Positions 238 to 15,386 of a stretch of 16,579 bases of DNA are shown here, in pieces. A program made the translations under genes and the position numbers. Below the pieces are notes generated by a model that was not told the origin of the DNA, did no database searches, and worked only from the letters and a program-made list of their open reading frames with translations. The stretch's first letter is position 1; the number at the start of each line of letters is the position of its first letter. This DNA comes from a virus (taxonomy: Duplodnaviria; Heunggongvirae; Uroviricota; Caudoviricetes): the IMG/VR virus record IMGVR_UViG_3300014205_000209. One strand, 5' to 3'.

Positions 238-1466
238 TATTCTAATTTTGTACCACAATCATCACAAATAGTTAAATCTTCACCAGCAACACCAAGTGAA
301 ATTTTATTGTTATGATTACATTTAATAGTGCATGATGTAACTCCAGTAGGGTTAGCAACACTTAAAAATAATTTATGTTGTCGTATGAAACTACCATTAG
401 AATAAATTAACACATTATCAATAAATACATCTACATTTTTCATTGATTTAACTATATCCCAATGTAATCCTGATTTATTTAGTCCACCAGCATCAGGATA
501 AGATGCACCAATAGCCATATGCATCGTTCCACCTATTTTTTCGTCGAATAAAATACTTTTTGAAAATGTTTTAATATTTTTATTTATTCCAAAAGCAATT
601 TCACCAATTTTATTAGATCCTTCATCCATTGAAATCATTTTATTTAGAAATTCATGATTCTTTTTAGCAAGTGCACTTATAATGATTCCGTCTTTTATTT
701 CTAATTCTACACCTTCAACTTCGAATCCATTATAACAAGCTGGATAATCAAATTTTATATAACCATTAACACTATCTTCTACAGGTGAAGTATATATTTC
801 TCCATCAGGCATATTACATTTACCATCACAATTAATCCATTTTCTACCTTCAACATTTGCTGTAATGTCTACATCATTTCCTACTATTCGTATTTGTTTT
901 GCATTTTCAAAAAGTTTAAGATATTCTTTTTGTTCATTTGAAATGTTTTGCCAATATAAAATAGGATTTTCATTTTTTAATCCACAAGCTTCATATACAA
1001 ATTCAGTATATTCTTCCAAACTCATTTCTGCATCTTGAGCTTGTGATAGAGTTGGATATGGACAATATACCCATTTATAATTTCCTGCAGTTTCACGTTC
1101 ATCATAAATATCTCTGACAATTTGATGTGCTTTTTTATATTTTGCAATTGTAGATGGATCTATTTTAGATAATTCTTTAGTATTAAATGGTCCATCAATT
1201 ATTATAGTATAATCTATTGTTTCTGCAGTAAATTTTCTAAATGGATTTAAAAATTCAATATTTTTACAATGTTTATAATAAGAATATGCTTGTCCTTCAA
1301 ATGACATATTAACTATTGGATAAGCACCACGTTTAAGTATTATTTCATATAATTCTTTAATTAAAGAAACAGCAATACTTGTACCATTTATTTCTACAAT
1401 TTTATTTGGCTGTACATTTAAAGAATAATCAACTAACAGTTCTGCTAATTTTCGTTCATTAATCAT
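237..1466 (-). CDS. Aminopeptidase, peptidase family M29 (AmpT/AmpS/PepS-like), with a 49-aa Cys-rich C-terminal extension
   Basis: M29 motifs NMPDGEIYTSP, IGEIAFG, LFDEKIGGTMHMAIGASYP and SGLHWD carry the Glu/His/Asp metal ligands. The N-terminus KLAELLVDYSLNVQP is typical of the family. Confidence 0.95.
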   Translation of the reverse strand: MINERKLAELLVDYSLNVQPNKIVEINGTSIAVSLIKELYEIILKRGAYPIVNMSFEGQAYSYYKHCKNIEFLNPFRKFTAETIDYTIIIDGPFNTKELSKIDPSTIAKYKKAHQIVRDIYDERETAGNYKWVYCPYPTLSQAQDAEMSLEEYTEFVYEACGLKNENPILYWQNISNEQKEYLKLFENAKQIRIVGNDVDITANVEGRKWINCDGKCNMPDGEIYTSPVEDSVNGYIKFDYPACYNGFEVEGVELEIKDGIIISALAKKNHEFLNKMISMDEGSNKIGEIAFGINKNIKTFSKSILFDEKIGGTMHMAIGASYPDAGGLNKSGLHWDIVKSMKNVDVFIDNVLIYSNGSFIRQHKLFLSVANPTGVTSCTIKCNHNNKISLGVAGEDLTICDDCGTKLE

Positions 1467-1879
1467 TTTTTTATACTTTCTAATTTAACTTTTAAAACAA
1501 TACTTGAGCTATATCGATCTTCATTAATAGTCGACATAGAATAACTTTTCATAGTTGGATGAGTTTGTTTTAAATATTTTTCTACTGTCATCCATTTAAA
1601 TTTATTTCCTTCACATCCAGAACCTTTGGTCATTATGCATACTTTTCCACAAGAAAAATCATAAAAAGTTGTACCATAATCTGTTAACTTTAATATAATA
1701 GTATTTTCTTCTAATTGTTGCTGAACAGTTGATTGTACTATAATTTTATTTCCATGTTTTGATCCAACATTAGATCCAACGTATCCTCCAACTGCACCAC
1801 CTACAGCAGAACTAACAAATCCTGCGTTAACACTAAAACAAAATGGTAATAACATAAATATACAAATTATTTTTTTCAT
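1463..1879 (-). CDS. Exported/membrane hypothetical protein with glycine-zipper segment
   Basis: Signal-peptide-like N-terminus MKKIICIFMLLPFCFSVNA followed by GGAVGGYVGSNVG (GxxxG repeats). ATGA coupling to the next gene. Confidence 0.7.
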   Translation of the reverse strand: MKKIICIFMLLPFCFSVNAGFVSSAVGGAVGGYVGSNVGSKHGNKIIVQSTVQQQLEENTIILKLTDYGTTFYDFSCGKVCIMTKGSGCEGNKFKWMTVEKYLKQTHPTMKSYSMSTINEDRYSSSIVLKVKLESIKK

Positions 1880-2794: not shown

Positions 2795-2924
2795 CTTTTT
2801 CCTTTTTTATTTTAGGATTTACACTTAATACTTTGCAACTATTAGTTGCACAAAAATAAATTATTTGATTATGTTGATTTCTCAAAATTTTAAATTTAAT
2901 TCCACATTGTTTACATTTTTCCAT
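2769..2924 (-). CDS. 51-aa zinc-ribbon microprotein (C-x2-C-x17-C-x4-C)
   Basis: Not in the track. ATG overlaps the upstream TAA (TAATG). Translation MEKCKQCGIKFKILRNQHNQIIYFCATNSCKVLSVNPKIKKEKDDFKIIRR; fills the 2795-2923 gap. Confidence 0.7.
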   Translation of the reverse strand: MEKCKQCGIKFKILRNQHNQIIYFCATNSCKVLSVNPKIKKEKDDFKIIRR

Positions 2925-3184
2925 TATTTTTCCAAAGGTGTTCTATTTGTTTGTTTACAATAAAAATTTATTTCTTTCGTTTTCTCTAACAATATTTTCT
3001 TTGCTTTAGAATAATCCAATTTACATCGTTTTAATAATTTAGATTTTGAACCTACTTCATCTTTATATTTAAGATTACACTTAAAACCTTCTTTTGAAAA
3101 CATTTCTATCATTTTTGCAATAAAGAATGATTTTCCTGAACCTACAGATCCTGCTAGTTCTATACTTAAAACATTTTTTTTCAT
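2924..3184 (-). CDS. Small P-loop-containing protein (Walker A only)
   Basis: IELAGSVGSGKS matches GxxxxGKS after a beta strand. At 86 aa it has no clear Walker B. Confidence 0.6.
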   Translation of the reverse strand: MKKNVLSIELAGSVGSGKSFFIAKMIEMFSKEGFKCNLKYKDEVGSKSKLLKRCKLDYSKAKKILLEKTKEINFYCKQTNRTPLEK

Positions 3185-3187
3185 GTA

Positions 3188-4597
3188 TTACTCCCTATAA
3201 GTAATTTCAATTTTTGTTTTTCCTTTTTGATTCCATCCAAAAATTCTACTTTTATCATTTAAGTTTGCTCTTATTATTTTATCATTTATTTTTATAATAA
3301 TAGCTTTTGTTTCTGGAATAAAAATTTCAGTATTACAATCTAAGGTATGATTATATGTTAATGTAAAACAATTATCGACAGTATTAAATTTAAAATTTGA
3401 ACCTGCAATTTTTCTAGGATATATTCTAATTAGTTTTTTAAGCTGTTGAGTTTCTTCACCATTAGTTAATACTCCAAATGGATGATTATCGTAAGTAAAA
3501 TAAATCCAACTAATATTAGATTTATCTGTTAAAGTTAAAAAATCATTCAAATAATCTAAATATCCTTCTGATGTTGAAGGAGCACCAAATTCACCAAAAA
3601 CTATAGGTGTTTTGAATTTTTTAGCATTTAGTAATGTACCTTTGATTTCTTGTTTCATTATTTTTTTTGCTAATTTAGAATATGGTTTACCTTCATGAAC
3701 TTTCAAATCATAATAATGAGGAGTAAAAATAGCTGGAATATTTGGTTTAAAATTTAATATTGAAGGAATACCTGAACTTGTCCAAATAGCTGGTTCAAAC
3801 CATATTGGTTTTCGAAATCTATTTTCTAAAACCATTTTTTGAATTTTATCATAAAATTTTGGTAATGTTTCACGTTCAAATTTAATTAAATCTTTCGAAG
3901 TTTCTTTTATTAAATATAATTCTTTAGTAGTTGTTAATTCTTTGATATTAGATGGTAATGCTGGAAAAGGTTCATTCATTAAATCGAATCCAACAACGTT
4001 AGATAAAGAATCAAATGATGTATAACATTTTTTTACAAATTCAACATATTTAGCTTGTAATGATTCACTTTTCCAGAAATTAGAATAACATGCTAACATT
4101 GCAGGTTGCAAATAATTATCACTCCATTTAGCTTGTTCAATAAAAGGTTCATTATTAGTATTTGCTGTCCAAGCTGGAAAACCATTACCGGTATAATTTA
4201 ATTCAGGTACTGGTCCATATAAATCCTGATGTAGATCTATTACAACATCAATTCCTAAACTTTTCAATTTATTTATTTGTTCAATAACTTTATCAAAATA
4301 TGTTTGTGATATTGCACCTTCTAATGGTTCTGCAGCATGCCAAAATATTAAAAACCTTACTAAATTAAATCCCCATTCATTTAATTTTTTATAATCTTCG
4401 TCAGTTTGCCATGGCAAATAAAAATTTTGACCGTTATGTTTTGAAAAATTTGAAACGTTCAAACCATGATATATTAATGTTCGTCCTTTAGTATCTTTAA
4501 TGTGATATTTATTTTTTGGTGTAGGCATTATCAAATGTGTACATTTTACCAAAAACAAAGACAACAACAAAATTAAATATTTTAACTTCATAATCAT
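3188..4597 (-). CDS. Glycoside hydrolase family 5, endoglycoceramidase-like, predicted lipoprotein
   Basis: DTKGRTLIYHGLN, GFNLVRFLIFWHAAEP, VVIDLHQD, acid/base GFDLMNEP, FTPHYY and nucleophile VFGEFG. C-terminal beta domain RIYPRKIAG. N-terminal hydrophobic stretch ending FLVKC. SD AGAGGTG upstream. Confidence 0.9.
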   Translation of the reverse strand: MIMKLKYLILLLSLFLVKCTHLIMPTPKNKYHIKDTKGRTLIYHGLNVSNFSKHNGQNFYLPWQTDEDYKKLNEWGFNLVRFLIFWHAAEPLEGAISQTYFDKVIEQINKLKSLGIDVVIDLHQDLYGPVPELNYTGNGFPAWTANTNNEPFIEQAKWSDNYLQPAMLACYSNFWKSESLQAKYVEFVKKCYTSFDSLSNVVGFDLMNEPFPALPSNIKELTTTKELYLIKETSKDLIKFERETLPKFYDKIQKMVLENRFRKPIWFEPAIWTSSGIPSILNFKPNIPAIFTPHYYDLKVHEGKPYSKLAKKIMKQEIKGTLLNAKKFKTPIVFGEFGAPSTSEGYLDYLNDFLTLTDKSNISWIYFTYDNHPFGVLTNGEETQQLKKLIRIYPRKIAGSNFKFNTVDNCFTLTYNHTLDCNTEIFIPETKAIIIKINDKIIRANLNDKSRIFGWNQKGKTKIEITYRE

Positions 4598-4601
4598 ATT
4601 C

Positions 4602-4706
4602 TCACCTCTTTAAAATAACATCAATATTAGAAATTAAAATAATTCCACAAATTATACAAATTACTAATAATATAAAGACTGCTGGTAATTGTTGTTTAAA
4701 ATTCAT
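4602..4706 (-). CDS. 34-aa single-transmembrane microprotein
   Basis: Not in the track. MNFKQQLPAVFILLVICIICGIILISNIDVILKR; ATGA-coupled to the upstream microprotein, and its 3' end contains the SD of the GH5 gene. Confidence 0.7.
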   Translation of the reverse strand: MNFKQQLPAVFILLVICIICGIILISNIDVILKR

Positions 4707-4786
4707 TTCTTTTTCTTTATAATTAAAAAAGTTACAACTGCAGCAATGATACCAAGTACAACAAAAAAGATAGATTTCTTCGACAT
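4703..4786 (-). CDS. 27-aa single-transmembrane microprotein
   Basis: Not in the track. MSKKSIFFVVLGIIAAVVTFLIIKKKK; strong SD AAGGAG (taaaaggagtcaaaATG). Confidence 0.75.
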   Translation of the reverse strand: MSKKSIFFVVLGIIAAVVTFLIIKKKK

Positions 4787-4797
4787 TTTGACTCCTT

Positions 4798-4911
4798 TTA
4801 ATGCATTTTTTTAAAAATTAATAAACAAAACCCAATAAAAATCAATACCCCAATACCAGAATCAATCATAGTTAATTTTCTGATAATTATATCTGCTTGT
4901 TCAGTAGTCAT
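4798..4911 (-). CDS. 37-aa single-transmembrane microprotein
   Basis: Not in the track. MTTEQADIIIRKLTMIDSGIGVLIFIGFCLLIFKKMH; SD GAAAGGA upstream. Confidence 0.7.
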   Translation of the reverse strand: MTTEQADIIIRKLTMIDSGIGVLIFIGFCLLIFKKMH

Positions 4912-4943
4912 TTTAATTTCCTTTCAGATCAACTTTAAACAAC

Positions 4944-4971
4944 AATAGCTATTCAATTAAGAATAGCTATT
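4944..4971. repeat. Perfect 11-bp inverted repeat whose arms each contain the palindrome AATAGCTATT (operator or hairpin)
   Basis: AATAGCTATTC-aattaa-GAATAGCTATT in the 4912-5033 intergenic gap. Confidence 0.75.
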
Positions 4972-5033
4972 TATCTTCATAGAATGTGATTTTTTTGACA
5001 TGTTAAAATTATCAAAAAAAACTTTACTTAAAG

Positions 5034-5414
5034 CTAAATATTTTTGAAAATATCTTTACTTATGTTTCTTAATTGTTCTATTTTAGTTTGTAATTCTGGT
5101 TTATCATTTCTACTTAAAACTTTAATCAATTGAGAAAAAAGATCCACTGGATTTTCTTTATTAAAAGCTTTCTTATCTATTGCTAATTTAATAGTTTCAT
5201 CAGCAATAAATGTAACTTTCTCTGGTAATCCAGTATGTTTAGTATGTGCAAAATCTGATAAATCTTTTTTCTTCATAGAATCAGCAAGATTTTTAACAGT
5301 TTCTCTTACCCCTTCTGGAATATCATTTAATGATAAAGCACCATCTCTATAAGCCCAAGCCATTCCCATCAATCTTTGTTGTGACTTAGAAACTGATTTA
5401 GATTCTAGATTCAT
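5034..5414 (-). CDS. DUF3008-domain protein with C-terminal extension
   Basis: SVSKSQQRLMGMA...LADSMKKKDLSDFAHTKHTGLPEKV resembles DUF3008. Start moved from 5423 to 5414 because AAGGA lies 8 nt upstream of that ATG. Confidence 0.8.
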   Translation of the reverse strand: MNLESKSVSKSQQRLMGMAWAYRDGALSLNDIPEGVRETVKNLADSMKKKDLSDFAHTKHTGLPEKVTFIADETIKLAIDKKAFNKENPVDLFSQLIKVLSRNDKPELQTKIEQLRNISKDIFKNI

Positions 5415-6141: not shown

Positions 6142-6417
6142 CTAAATAGGAATGAATTTTATTAGTATATCTTCGTCACCATCAACTTTAATTTTACAAT
6201 TTGGAAAATCTTTATCACTTTCATTTAAAGACATTCCAAGTGTCATTTTGTTTTTAGGACATTCATTACCACATCTATCAAAATAACAACCATAACATTG
6301 AGAAGCAGTACCCTCGAAATGTTGTTTAATTTTGAATTTTATCCCTTTTATAATAATCTTGTCATGTGAAAATTTTGCAGGGATATATTTTTCTGGCTCA
6401 ATCAGTGTTATTTTCAT
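6142..6417 (-). CDS. Cys-rich hypothetical phage protein
   Basis: CYGCYF..C...C...C pattern; ATGA-coupled to the upstream gene. Confidence 0.65.
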   Translation of the reverse strand: MKITLIEPEKYIPAKFSHDKIIIKGIKFKIKQHFEGTASQCYGCYFDRCGNECPKNKMTLGMSLNESDKDFPNCKIKVDGDEDILIKFIPI

Positions 6418-7385
6418 GGTATAAATGGTGTAATATTTGTTATTTTATTTAAAGCTCTTAAAGCAGAACTTGAAATGTGTTCAAATTGTTTATCGCAAGG
6501 AATATAAATTACTTTAATATCATTTTTATAATATTTCATAAATTGAAGTTGATTCATTTCATAATCTAAATCATAACCATTTCTTAAACCTCTTATAATT
6601 GTTATATCTGCATAATCCTCTTTTTCTTTTACAAAATCTGTTAATAAACCTTCAAATGTTTGTACATCATAAAACCATAATTGTTCTTTTAATTTAACAT
6701 AACGTTCATTAAAACTTGCGGAATCTTTTTCTGGATTTTTTCCAATTGCTATTATAACTTTATCGAATAATTTAGATGACTTTAATAAAATATCCATATG
6801 ACCATTATGAAATGGGTCGAATGATCCTGCATATATACCTATTTTAGGTTTCCAATTTTTAACCAAATCAACCAAATAAAAAAGGTTATGATATTTTTCA
6901 TGTGAATTTGCAACATTTAAAAGAAATTCTAACCTTTTTTTTTTGAAAAATGGATAACTAATAAATTGATATTCTTTAAAAATTTGATAATTATAATCTA
7001 GCAATTTACTAATAGATTTATTTTCTAAAATTTCACAATCAATATTTTTAAACATTTGAAATAATTCATCAGTTGGTTCTTGATCAGTAAAATATAAACT
7101 AGTATTTTTAATAAATTCAACTATTTTATCTGCACATTTTTGATCAATGTCATATATTTTTTTATTAAAATCTTCAATAAATATTTTAGCACTTTCTTCT
7201 TCATTATTTCTTCTATTAGGATAATATACAATGTCATGATATTTTGCTACAATATTAAGAAATTTTCTATTTTCATTATCAATATCTAATTGTTTTATTC
7301 CCCTAAAAACATTTATTAAATGTTGAGTAGTATGAAAAAAACGATGATGTTCATTATATCTTAAATAAACTTCTTCAGTAAGCAT
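6414..7385 (-). CDS. coaD: Fusion of an HD-superfamily phosphohydrolase (COG4339-like) and phosphopantetheine adenylyltransferase
   Basis: N-terminal half: HRFFHTTQHL, YHDIVY, NEEESA, DCEIL. C-terminal half: GIYAGSFDPFHNGHMDI, DKVIIAIGKNPEK, IIRGLR, DLDYE and ISSS, all PPAT signatures. Confidence 0.88.
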   Translation of the reverse strand: MLTEEVYLRYNEHHRFFHTTQHLINVFRGIKQLDIDNENRKFLNIVAKYHDIVYYPNRRNNEEESAKIFIEDFNKKIYDIDQKCADKIVEFIKNTSLYFTDQEPTDELFQMFKNIDCEILENKSISKLLDYNYQIFKEYQFISYPFFKKKRLEFLLNVANSHEKYHNLFYLVDLVKNWKPKIGIYAGSFDPFHNGHMDILLKSSKLFDKVIIAIGKNPEKDSASFNERYVKLKEQLWFYDVQTFEGLLTDFVKEKEDYADITIIRGLRNGYDLDYEMNQLQFMKYYKNDIKVIYIPCDKQFEHISSSALRALNKITNITPFIP

Positions 7386-8114: not shown

Positions 8115-8124
8115 AAATATCAAT
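8115..8124 (-). promoter_or_regulatory. Repeated ATTGATATTT element, copy 1
   Basis: ATTGATATTT-ttggt-AGGAGG-aaatta-ATG; identical 10-mers occur at 12671 and 15357. Confidence 0.6.
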
Positions 8125-12198: not shown

Positions 12199-12611
12199 AA
12201 TACACTTTCTATTTCAATTTTCTTTAATGCTATTTTATAATAATCAGTTTCACCTTTAACTGCTTTATAAATATCGAATGCTAATTGCAAATTTTTATCA
12301 CTTAAATCATTTCTATTAGTATCATTTCCTGAAAACCAACCAAAAGTAGCATCAAGAATAGATATCGTACATACCTGTTCATTTGAATCATCATCAACGA
12401 AGTCAATACATAATGTACCACCTGTATAATATATATTAGTAATCAATTTGCTTTTCTGAGGTGCTGATTCTTTGATACAATGTTCCAACAAATTTTCTAA
12501 AATTGGTTCAAGAAAATCATTTGTCAAAATTATAGTTGATTGTTTAATTGATTGAAAAGAATCATTTTGATGTTTAATTCCAAAAATAGTTGTAAAAATT
12601 TTTCTAAACAT
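12192..12611 (-). CDS. Hypothetical protein
   Basis: Track start is 12629. The ATG at 12611 has AAGGAG 6 nt upstream and is preferred. Confidence 0.65.
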   Translation of the reverse strand: MFRKIFTTIFGIKHQNDSFQSIKQSTIILTNDFLEPILENLLEHCIKESAPQKSKLITNIYYTGGTLCIDFVDDDSNEQVCTISILDATFGWFSGNDTNRNDLSDKNLQLAFDIYKAVKGETDYYKIALKKIEIESVLC

Positions 12612-12654
12612 TAAATACTCCTTTTTCATTTTCAGAAATATCAGTGATTTTCAT
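12604..12654 (-). CDS. 16-aa peptide ORF (possible leader peptide or gene remnant)
   Basis: MKITDISENEKGVFNV*; SD AAGGAG-aatt-ATG. Its end overlaps the SD and ATG of the next gene. Confidence 0.45.
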   Translation of the reverse strand: MKITDISENEKGVFNV

Positions 12655-12700
12655 AATTCTCCTTTGATATAAATATCAATAAAAAATTGCAAAAAAGATT
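12654..12700 (-). promoter_or_regulatory. Repeated element copy 2 (AATC-T6-N10-ATTGATATTT-N6-AAGGAGAAT)
   Basis: Near-identical architecture to 15341-15386; also contains the inverted repeat TTGATAT-aa-ATATCAA (12664-12679). Confidence 0.7.
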
Positions 12701-15340: not shown

Positions 15341-15386
15341 ATTCTCCTTTTTATAGAAATATCAATTCACTTTGTAAAAAAAGATT
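15341..15386 (-). promoter_or_regulatory. Repeated element copy 3 / putative promoter TTTACA-N17-TATAAA
   Basis: AATC-T7-acaaagtga-ATTGATATTT-ctataaa-AAGGAGAAT. Confidence 0.7.

Follow-up and report, generated by a model that had tools for sequence, protein, structure and literature searches.

Three short hydrophobic reading frames ahead of a phage GH5 gene: probable lineage-specific membrane microproteins without a conserved GH5 pairing

Small hydrophobic orphan ORFs are known to be frequent in phages. Single-helix microproteins of phages and bacteria act on membrane proteins or on the bilayer itself, with outcomes such as superinfection exclusion, inhibition of envelope enzymes and the timing of lysis. 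Examples at the phage side are the single-gene lysis proteins, with E of phiX174 (91 aa) targeting MraY and LysM of levivirus M (37 aa) targeting MurJ, and the holins, characterised members of which are not known to be shorter than about 60 aa. In bacteria, AcrZ, MgrB, MgtS, KdpF and CydX are single-helix regulators and TisB, Fst and Ldr are type I toxins; AcrZ and MgrB regulate membrane complexes, and membrane depolarisation is the effect of the type I toxins. For phage genomes, small-gene families were reportedly described by Fremin et al. in 2022 (Cell Rep 39:110984). Among small-protein families, 15.3% are predicted to be transmembrane or secreted (PMC11364881).

Here we describe a locus with three candidates of this kind in a stretch of 16,579 nucleotides (hereafter the window) of the virus record IMGVR_UViG_3300014205_000209. 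The original prediction for this DNA stated that an apparently empty gap holds ORFs of 37, 27 and 34 aa (ORF1-ORF3), and proposed that these form a co-expressed module with the GH5 gene that follows or are small inhibitors of host membrane complexes. Our analysis favours, with moderate confidence, three separate and real orphan genes that are specific to the lineage of an uncultured, low-GC large phage and encode single-pass membrane microproteins. Their adjacency to GH5 is best read, from the sequence comparisons given below, as positional (a probably shared transcript) and not as a conserved functional pairing.

The window is phage-like, with a GC content of 22-29% across its length (about 25% overall) and about 35 tightly packed genes that are all located on the minus strand. 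Its gene content is of the type found in accessory regions of large phages: products include a T4-type RNA ligase, an HD hydrolase, an HD-cytidylyltransferase fusion, a CheY-like receiver, a STAS protein and DUF3008. The neighbours of ORF1-ORF3 encode DUF3008 (stop at 5034 on the minus strand, upstream of ORF1), the endoglycoceramidase-like GH5 protein, an 86-aa P-loop-like protein, DUF4419, a glycine-zipper protein and an M29 peptidase. The gap that holds ORF1-ORF3 measures 436 nt; no other large gap interrupts the dense packing of the window, and small SD-led ORFs also occupy other gaps. The sequence is present in landfill and groundwater metagenomes. Its sole DNA-level similarity to deposited phages concerns two uncultured megaphages of 635-642 kb (LR745206.1 and LR756502.1): 78% over 141 nt (window 6450-6590), in the cytidylyltransferase (PPAT) half of the HD-fusion gene at 6414-7385, a half that shares 49% amino-acid identity with the megaphages over 140 residues.

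The adjoining 10 kb of the same phage contain genes for a sigma-70 factor and a MazG-cytidylyltransferase fusion as well as a TnpB-like gene. The latter (contig L111, 7845-9071, minus strand; 408 aa, OrfB_IS605 / Cas12f1-like_TNB) lies outside the window and is opposite in strand to the otherwise co-oriented phage genes around it. Also outside the window, an uncalled ORF of 74 aa (L111, 5052-5276, plus strand) occupies a 220-nt gap between called genes; it has an AAAGGA site, and its product contains two or three hydrophobic helices.

The elements of the locus, in their order along the minus strand, are as follows.

4944-4971, minus strand: terminator-like hairpin between the DUF3008 gene and ORF1 (perfect stem of 11 bp, loop of 6 nt, then GTTGTTT)
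4926-4932, minus strand: TTGATCT element, directly 5' of the ORF1 binding site
4919-4925, minus strand: ORF1 binding site GAAAGGA, 7 nt 5' of the ORF1 ATG
4798-4911, minus strand: ORF1, 37 aa (charged N-terminal 17 residues, hydrophobic stretch of 16 residues, KKMH tail)
4787-4797, minus strand: ORF1-ORF2 spacer of 11 nt, containing the ORF2 AAGGAG (4792-4797) right after the ORF1 TAA
4703-4786, minus strand: ORF2, 27 aa, 84 nt (MSKKS, hydrophobic helix of 19 residues, KKKK)
4602-4706, minus strand: ORF3, 34 aa (hydrophobic helix of 18 residues)
3188-4597, minus strand: endoglycoceramidase-like GH5 gene, 469 aa (N-terminal signal peptide, conserved Cys)

On the minus strand the hairpin is thus followed by SD-ORF1, SD-ORF2, coupled ORF3 and SD-GH5, with no terminator between, and from 4911 to 4598 only 15 of the 314 nt are non-coding. 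The description of the layout in the original prediction was accurate throughout: the coordinates of the ORFs match exactly, the SD sites of two ORFs and the ATGA coupling of the third are read at the positions given, and the SD site of GH5 is indeed found within ORF3. More precisely, AAGGAG precedes the ORF2 ATG by 5 nt, the start of ORF3 overlaps the TGA stop of ORF2, and the final codons and stop of ORF3 (AAG AGG TGA) make up the GH5 binding site AAGAGGTGA, at 4 nt 5' of the GH5 ATG at 4597. The expectation that gene callers overlook all three ORFs holds for ORF2 and ORF3, which are absent from the public protein collection, and fails for ORF1, which was already called on two contigs by an independent public pipeline (P0121; gene 2876-2989 of L001). 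With its 84 nt, ORF2 falls under the usual gene-caller minimum of 90 nt (the Prodigal default).

Each ORF contains one hydrophobic helix with basic flanks, as had been proposed, and the basic residues lie C-terminally. Defined as runs without charged or polar-amide residues, the hydrophobic stretches measure 16, 19 and 18 residues in ORF1, ORF2 and ORF3, and the corresponding Kyte-Doolittle maxima over 17 residues are 2.39, 3.14 and 3.56 (ORF1 being the weakest helix of the three). The ORFs are not copies of one another either, their pairwise identity amounting to only 15-22%.

Several observations show that the arrangement is not random. When the 436-nt gap was shuffled 20,000 times with its dinucleotides preserved, three ATG-initiated ORFs of at least 27 aa appeared on the same strand in 0.47% of cases; among antisense windows of equal size the count was 0 of 323. 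Among ORFs from shuffled sequence 0.5% are helix-like, and none of the 33 spurious ORFs of 25-45 aa in the window passes the helix filter. Given that an out-of-frame ORF inside the DUF4419 gene (2248-2364) does pass a looser version of this filter, the chance rate of hydrophobic ORFs in such AT-rich sequence is low, not zero. On the coding strand all five AAGGAG sites are found at binding-site spacing before an ATG; the opposite strand has one such site, with no ATG after it. Clear binding sites are seen for about half of the genes in the window. The codon-position composition of ORF1-ORF3 mirrors that of the 28 long genes (G 22% at position 1 and 11-12% at positions 2 and 3; C 4% at position 3). 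In-frame codon-usage log-odds are +14.4 bits for ORF1, +1.9 for ORF2 and +8.8 for ORF3; calculated per codon, ORF1 (0.40) and ORF3 are within the range of real genes (0.23-0.76) and ORF2 is weak or equivocal. Given the shuffles, the rarity of helix-like spurious ORFs, the pairing of AAGGAG with ATG and the gene-like codon-position composition, a chance origin of the ORFs is unlikely. Judged from these sequence properties ORF1-ORF3 are probably coding, and we are fairly confident that at least two of the three are genuine genes.

The strongest alternative considers the 436-nt gap as a leader or regulatory region. The ORFs would then be frames that arose by chance, or else short upstream ORFs that tune GH5 expression through the act of being translated and not through their product. 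The weak codon score of ORF2 fits this idea, as does the outcome that no homologues were found for ORF1-ORF3 (see below). This genome does have mini-ORFs of the leader type, as follows from an ORF of 16 codons (MKITDISENEKGVFNV) at 12604-12654 on the minus strand: it is led by a strong AAGGAG, has a TAATG overlap at its end and includes the AAGGAG that serves the following gene (ATG at 12611), and is thereby a second mini-ORF that bears the binding site of the gene after it. Nonetheless, three consecutive frames with hydrophobic stretches of membrane length are very unlikely by chance, a leader peptide does not need a helix, and both the strong, correctly spaced binding sites and the gene-like composition speak against this reading. 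Overall, we regard it as unlikely, though it deserves more weight than the alternatives that follow.

ORF1-ORF3 have no detectable relatives. For ORF3, a phmmer search against 1.84 billion representatives gave no matches. With tblastn no homologue of ORF1-ORF3 was found in 50,697 phage records (low-complexity filter on), and the best hit in 575 kb of retrieved loci had an E-value of about 0.3; for ORF1 and ORF3, five large phage records yielded no homologue. Comparison of the three ORFs with Pfam, PHROGs, NCBIfam and PADLOC produced no meaningful match, and all these outcomes concern hydrophobic queries of 27-37 aa, for which the power to find homologues is low. The public protein cluster of ORF1 has one member. 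Neighbours of the microproteins in the ESM Atlas score at chance level; for ORF3, the language-model neighbours that come nearest belong to the YoaK, YncL and UPF0387 clusters, small inner-membrane proteins of a generic kind, with scores of 0.77-0.81, which is chance level. Lacking a detectable relative, ORF1-ORF3 fall outside any described small-gene family.

All contigs found to span the full locus (L001, L021, L022 and L024) are 100% identical to the window over this region. Short contigs of low depth from other landfill and sediment runs (X3, X4 and X5), with pieces that are 90-99% alike, contribute a handful of variant letters, which are conservative or synonymous. One of them has F28V in ORF1 together with a change in the TTGATCT element; a second, over ORF3 and ORF2, has in ORF3 synonymous changes at V10 and N2 as well as F3I and Q5K, and also contains five gap letters that are unplaced relative to the frames. 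These variants are compatible with coding, and too thin to weigh much.

One profile match needs separate mention. ORF2 scores 17.2 bits against the LPXTG signal model TIGR01167 (cutoff 15.9 bits) and 19.8 against PF00746 (cutoff 20), where the LPXTG-model match spans only model positions 8-32 of 34, i.e. the hydrophobic stretch and the basic tail. ORF2 begins with MSKKS, counts 27 aa and has neither an LPXTG motif nor a passenger domain. We therefore rejected it as a sorting signal and attribute the similarity to composition.

The GH5 assignment of the downstream gene is well founded. Its product matches Pfam PF00150 (E = 5e-26) and the PDB structure of endoglycoceramidase II (2osw, E = 2e-37), has 132 database relatives at E <= 0.001, and contains the catalytic motifs N208-E209-P210 and G335-E336, which are invariant in the alignment of GH5 relatives, as expected of a GH5 catalytic domain. 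Against the NCBIfam endoglycoceramidase I equivalog it reaches 110.8 bits, far under the cutoff of 700 bits, so that no substrate is assigned. The public JGI gene call begins at Met24 (446 aa) and thereby drops the signal peptide (window 4528-4597); in the 469-aa form, the N-terminus lines up with the signal peptides that relatives have. The Cys of this form aligns with their lipobox Cys (ISGC, FSGC, LTNC, LIGC), and the window itself reads LVKC, in which K at -1 is off the consensus that we used ([LVI][ASTVI][GAS]C after the hydrophobic core of the signal peptide).

Endoglycoceramidase-like GH5 genes recur in large viral contigs of 138, 330 and 467 kb (L025; L108, L109, L110). On the phage-like contig L025 (3099-5362), the GH5 gene is located 11 nt 3' of a patatin-type lipase gene. 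These occurrences hint at a recurrent role of this GH5 class in phages that attack envelope lipids. Directly 3' of GH5 in the window, the 86-aa protein (2924-3184, minus strand) carries a Walker-A-like GSVGSGKS, has weak P-loop matches only (HerA, HypB and NTPase models; E 0.002-0.1) and falls far short of the length that a complete NTPase requires. Several relatives likewise have a small protein of about 85 aa after GH5; these proteins are mutually non-homologous, and a conserved partner at this side was therefore rejected.

Could the microproteins belong to lysis instead? According to this explanation, ORF1-ORF3 are a holin/antiholin-like set for lysis timing and GH5 attacks an envelope glycolipid late in infection, which would amount to an unusual lysis cassette. 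Small size, a single helix and basic C-terminal tails are indeed holin-like, and the lipase next to GH5 on L025 could be taken as a hint of envelope-lipid attack. Against it, the best match (ORF2 with Phage_holin_2_3) has an E-value of 0.061 and 13.8 bits at a cutoff of 28.8 bits, no holin PHROG is found at E < 0.01, a peptidoglycan hydrolase or spanin was not found in the 26 kb of genome examined, and the genes in front of GH5 relatives generally do not encode membrane proteins. We consider such a lysis set quite unlikely.

The relation to GH5 was assessed at loci drawn from IMG/VR and from metagenomes, among them viral contigs with lengths of 138-467 kb, where a locus counted as assessable with at least 450 nt upstream of GH5. 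A small hydrophobic ORF precedes GH5 at one of the 57 assessable relative loci (L041, a single ORF of 35 aa with a GTG start), and an array of small ORFs at none of these 57. In the closest GH5 relative with DNA available (L002, 55% identity), the GH5 binding site comes directly after a terminator-like hairpin, and microprotein ORFs are absent. In a relative with 57% identity an overlapping upstream ORF of 65 aa is present, the visible C-terminal 33 residues of which are basic, not hydrophobic. Among the 55 upstream neighbours found for GH5 relatives, 48 are without a membrane helix. At the other side of the locus, small hydrophobic ORFs follow DUF3008 relatives at 0 of 17 loci. Since GH5 and DUF3008 relatives essentially lack such neighbours, the adjacency of microproteins and GH5 is specific to this phage lineage.

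These counts speak against the module for envelope remodelling or exclusion of the original prediction, here read as one dedicated unit of the three microproteins and GH5 in which the helices are needed for the action or targeting of GH5. The tight operon layout that is coupled into GH5 speaks for such a module, and so does the presence of further exported products in the co-oriented block (GH5 with its signal peptide and the glycine-zipper protein at 1463-1879). However, GH5 homologues are essentially never flanked by such ORFs, the nearest two relatives included; moreover, GH5 relatives bear their own signal peptide or lipobox, which makes a targeting helper unneeded. Nor does the notion of a candidate undescribed system fare better: the synteny is not recurrent, and the PADLOC defence models gave no match to the region. 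A dedicated module is thus very unlikely. In a more specific form, the three helices would build a phage-specific complex in the host membrane that works with GH5 by giving access to, or flipping, an envelope glycolipid. Recent assembly of such a cassette in this lineage would explain the missing conserved synteny, and, if true, the cassette would represent a novel type of device for envelope attack or exclusion; we rate it as highly improbable.

That ORF1-ORF3 are the fragments of one decayed three-helix membrane protein gene of about 100 aa with two frameshifts, as might be argued from their three different frames, three helices and sum of about 98 aa, is hardly credible given that ORF1 and ORF2 each have an ATG with a strong, well-placed binding site and ORF3 an exact ATGA (unexpected in decay) and that the homologue searches found no intact relative.

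Returning to three separate lineage-specific genes, the structure of the locus suggests how they could be expressed. The hairpin at 4944-4971 likely marks the start of a new expression unit: the RNA from 4930 to 5000 folds at -17.5 kcal/mol (z = -4.4) and none of 200 shuffles folds as well. The transcription unit would thus begin after this hairpin, with ORF1-ORF3 opening it. The TTGATCT element resembles the recurrent ATTGATATTT, which is found at 8115-8124, 12671-12680 and 15357-15366, 5-9 nt 5' of three other AGGAG sites. One possibility is that TTGATCT/ATTGATATTT serves as a phage promoter or regulatory signal that marks unit starts.

Within this unit ORF1 and ORF2 would be translated from their own binding sites and ORF3 by stop-start coupling, so that translation may be coupled from ORF2 via ORF3 into GH5. 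Because a ribosome that finishes ORF3 would stop within the binding site of GH5, translation of GH5 is probably coupled to that of the microproteins. Co-expression with GH5, as originally proposed, is compatible with our data: the layout of the unit, free of an internal terminator, fits both co-transcription and translational coupling. After infection the helices would insert in the host cytoplasmic membrane, where each microprotein might act alone, either on a membrane protein of the host or of the phage to which it binds or through a disturbance of the bilayer, in analogy to the peptides described above. Other products of the unit appear to be directed to the envelope as well, namely the exported GH5 and the secreted glycine-zipper protein. 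The latter (138 aa, 1463-1879, minus strand), predicted as the second exported product of the co-oriented block of GH5, has a cleavable-looking signal peptide ending in FSVNA and a glycine-zipper stretch, and matches Rick_17kDa_Anti at E = 9e-4, which is under the cutoff.

Given that they are without relatives and have no conserved tie to GH5, ORF1-ORF3 look like ordinary lineage-specific small genes of a phage and not like a new system. The finding as such defines no system and opens no new question. If translated, they would add three more unannotated membrane microproteins to a large environmental phage, two of which are invisible to standard gene callers. It illustrates that SD-led mini-genes can go unnoticed in "empty" stretches of a phage genome, and peptides of this kind are candidates for inhibiting the membrane machinery of the host.

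Summarizing the comparison with known systems, ORF1-ORF3 share with the phage small-gene families (Fremin et al.; PMC11364881) a length of less than 50 codons, a predicted direction to the membrane, partial omission by gene callers and the lack of an annotated function; the members of such families recur from genome to genome, which is what defines them, whereas ORF1-ORF3 have no detectable relative. Holins and antiholins of dsDNA phages are likewise small membrane proteins in which the C-terminal tail is basic, and their genes lie in tight operons with those for envelope-degrading enzymes. ORF1-ORF3, however, are with 27-37 aa under the characterised size and match no holin family, and the enzyme next to them is an endoglycoceramidase-like GH5 instead of a hydrolase of peptidoglycan. 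In bacteria, the single-helix regulators and the type I toxins resemble ORF1-ORF3 in size (26-50 aa), in having one helix and in their charged flanks; they differ by the absence of significant similarity, of an evident antisense RNA or partner complex, and by the phage setting found here. The single-gene lysis proteins ("protein antibiotics") come from tiny ssDNA and ssRNA phages without holin-endolysin and show no sequence similarity to ORF1-ORF3. Yet these too are phage peptides with a single helix, down to 37 aa in length, that bind a host inner-membrane enzyme, and by this analogy their action offers a plausible working model for ORF1-ORF3.
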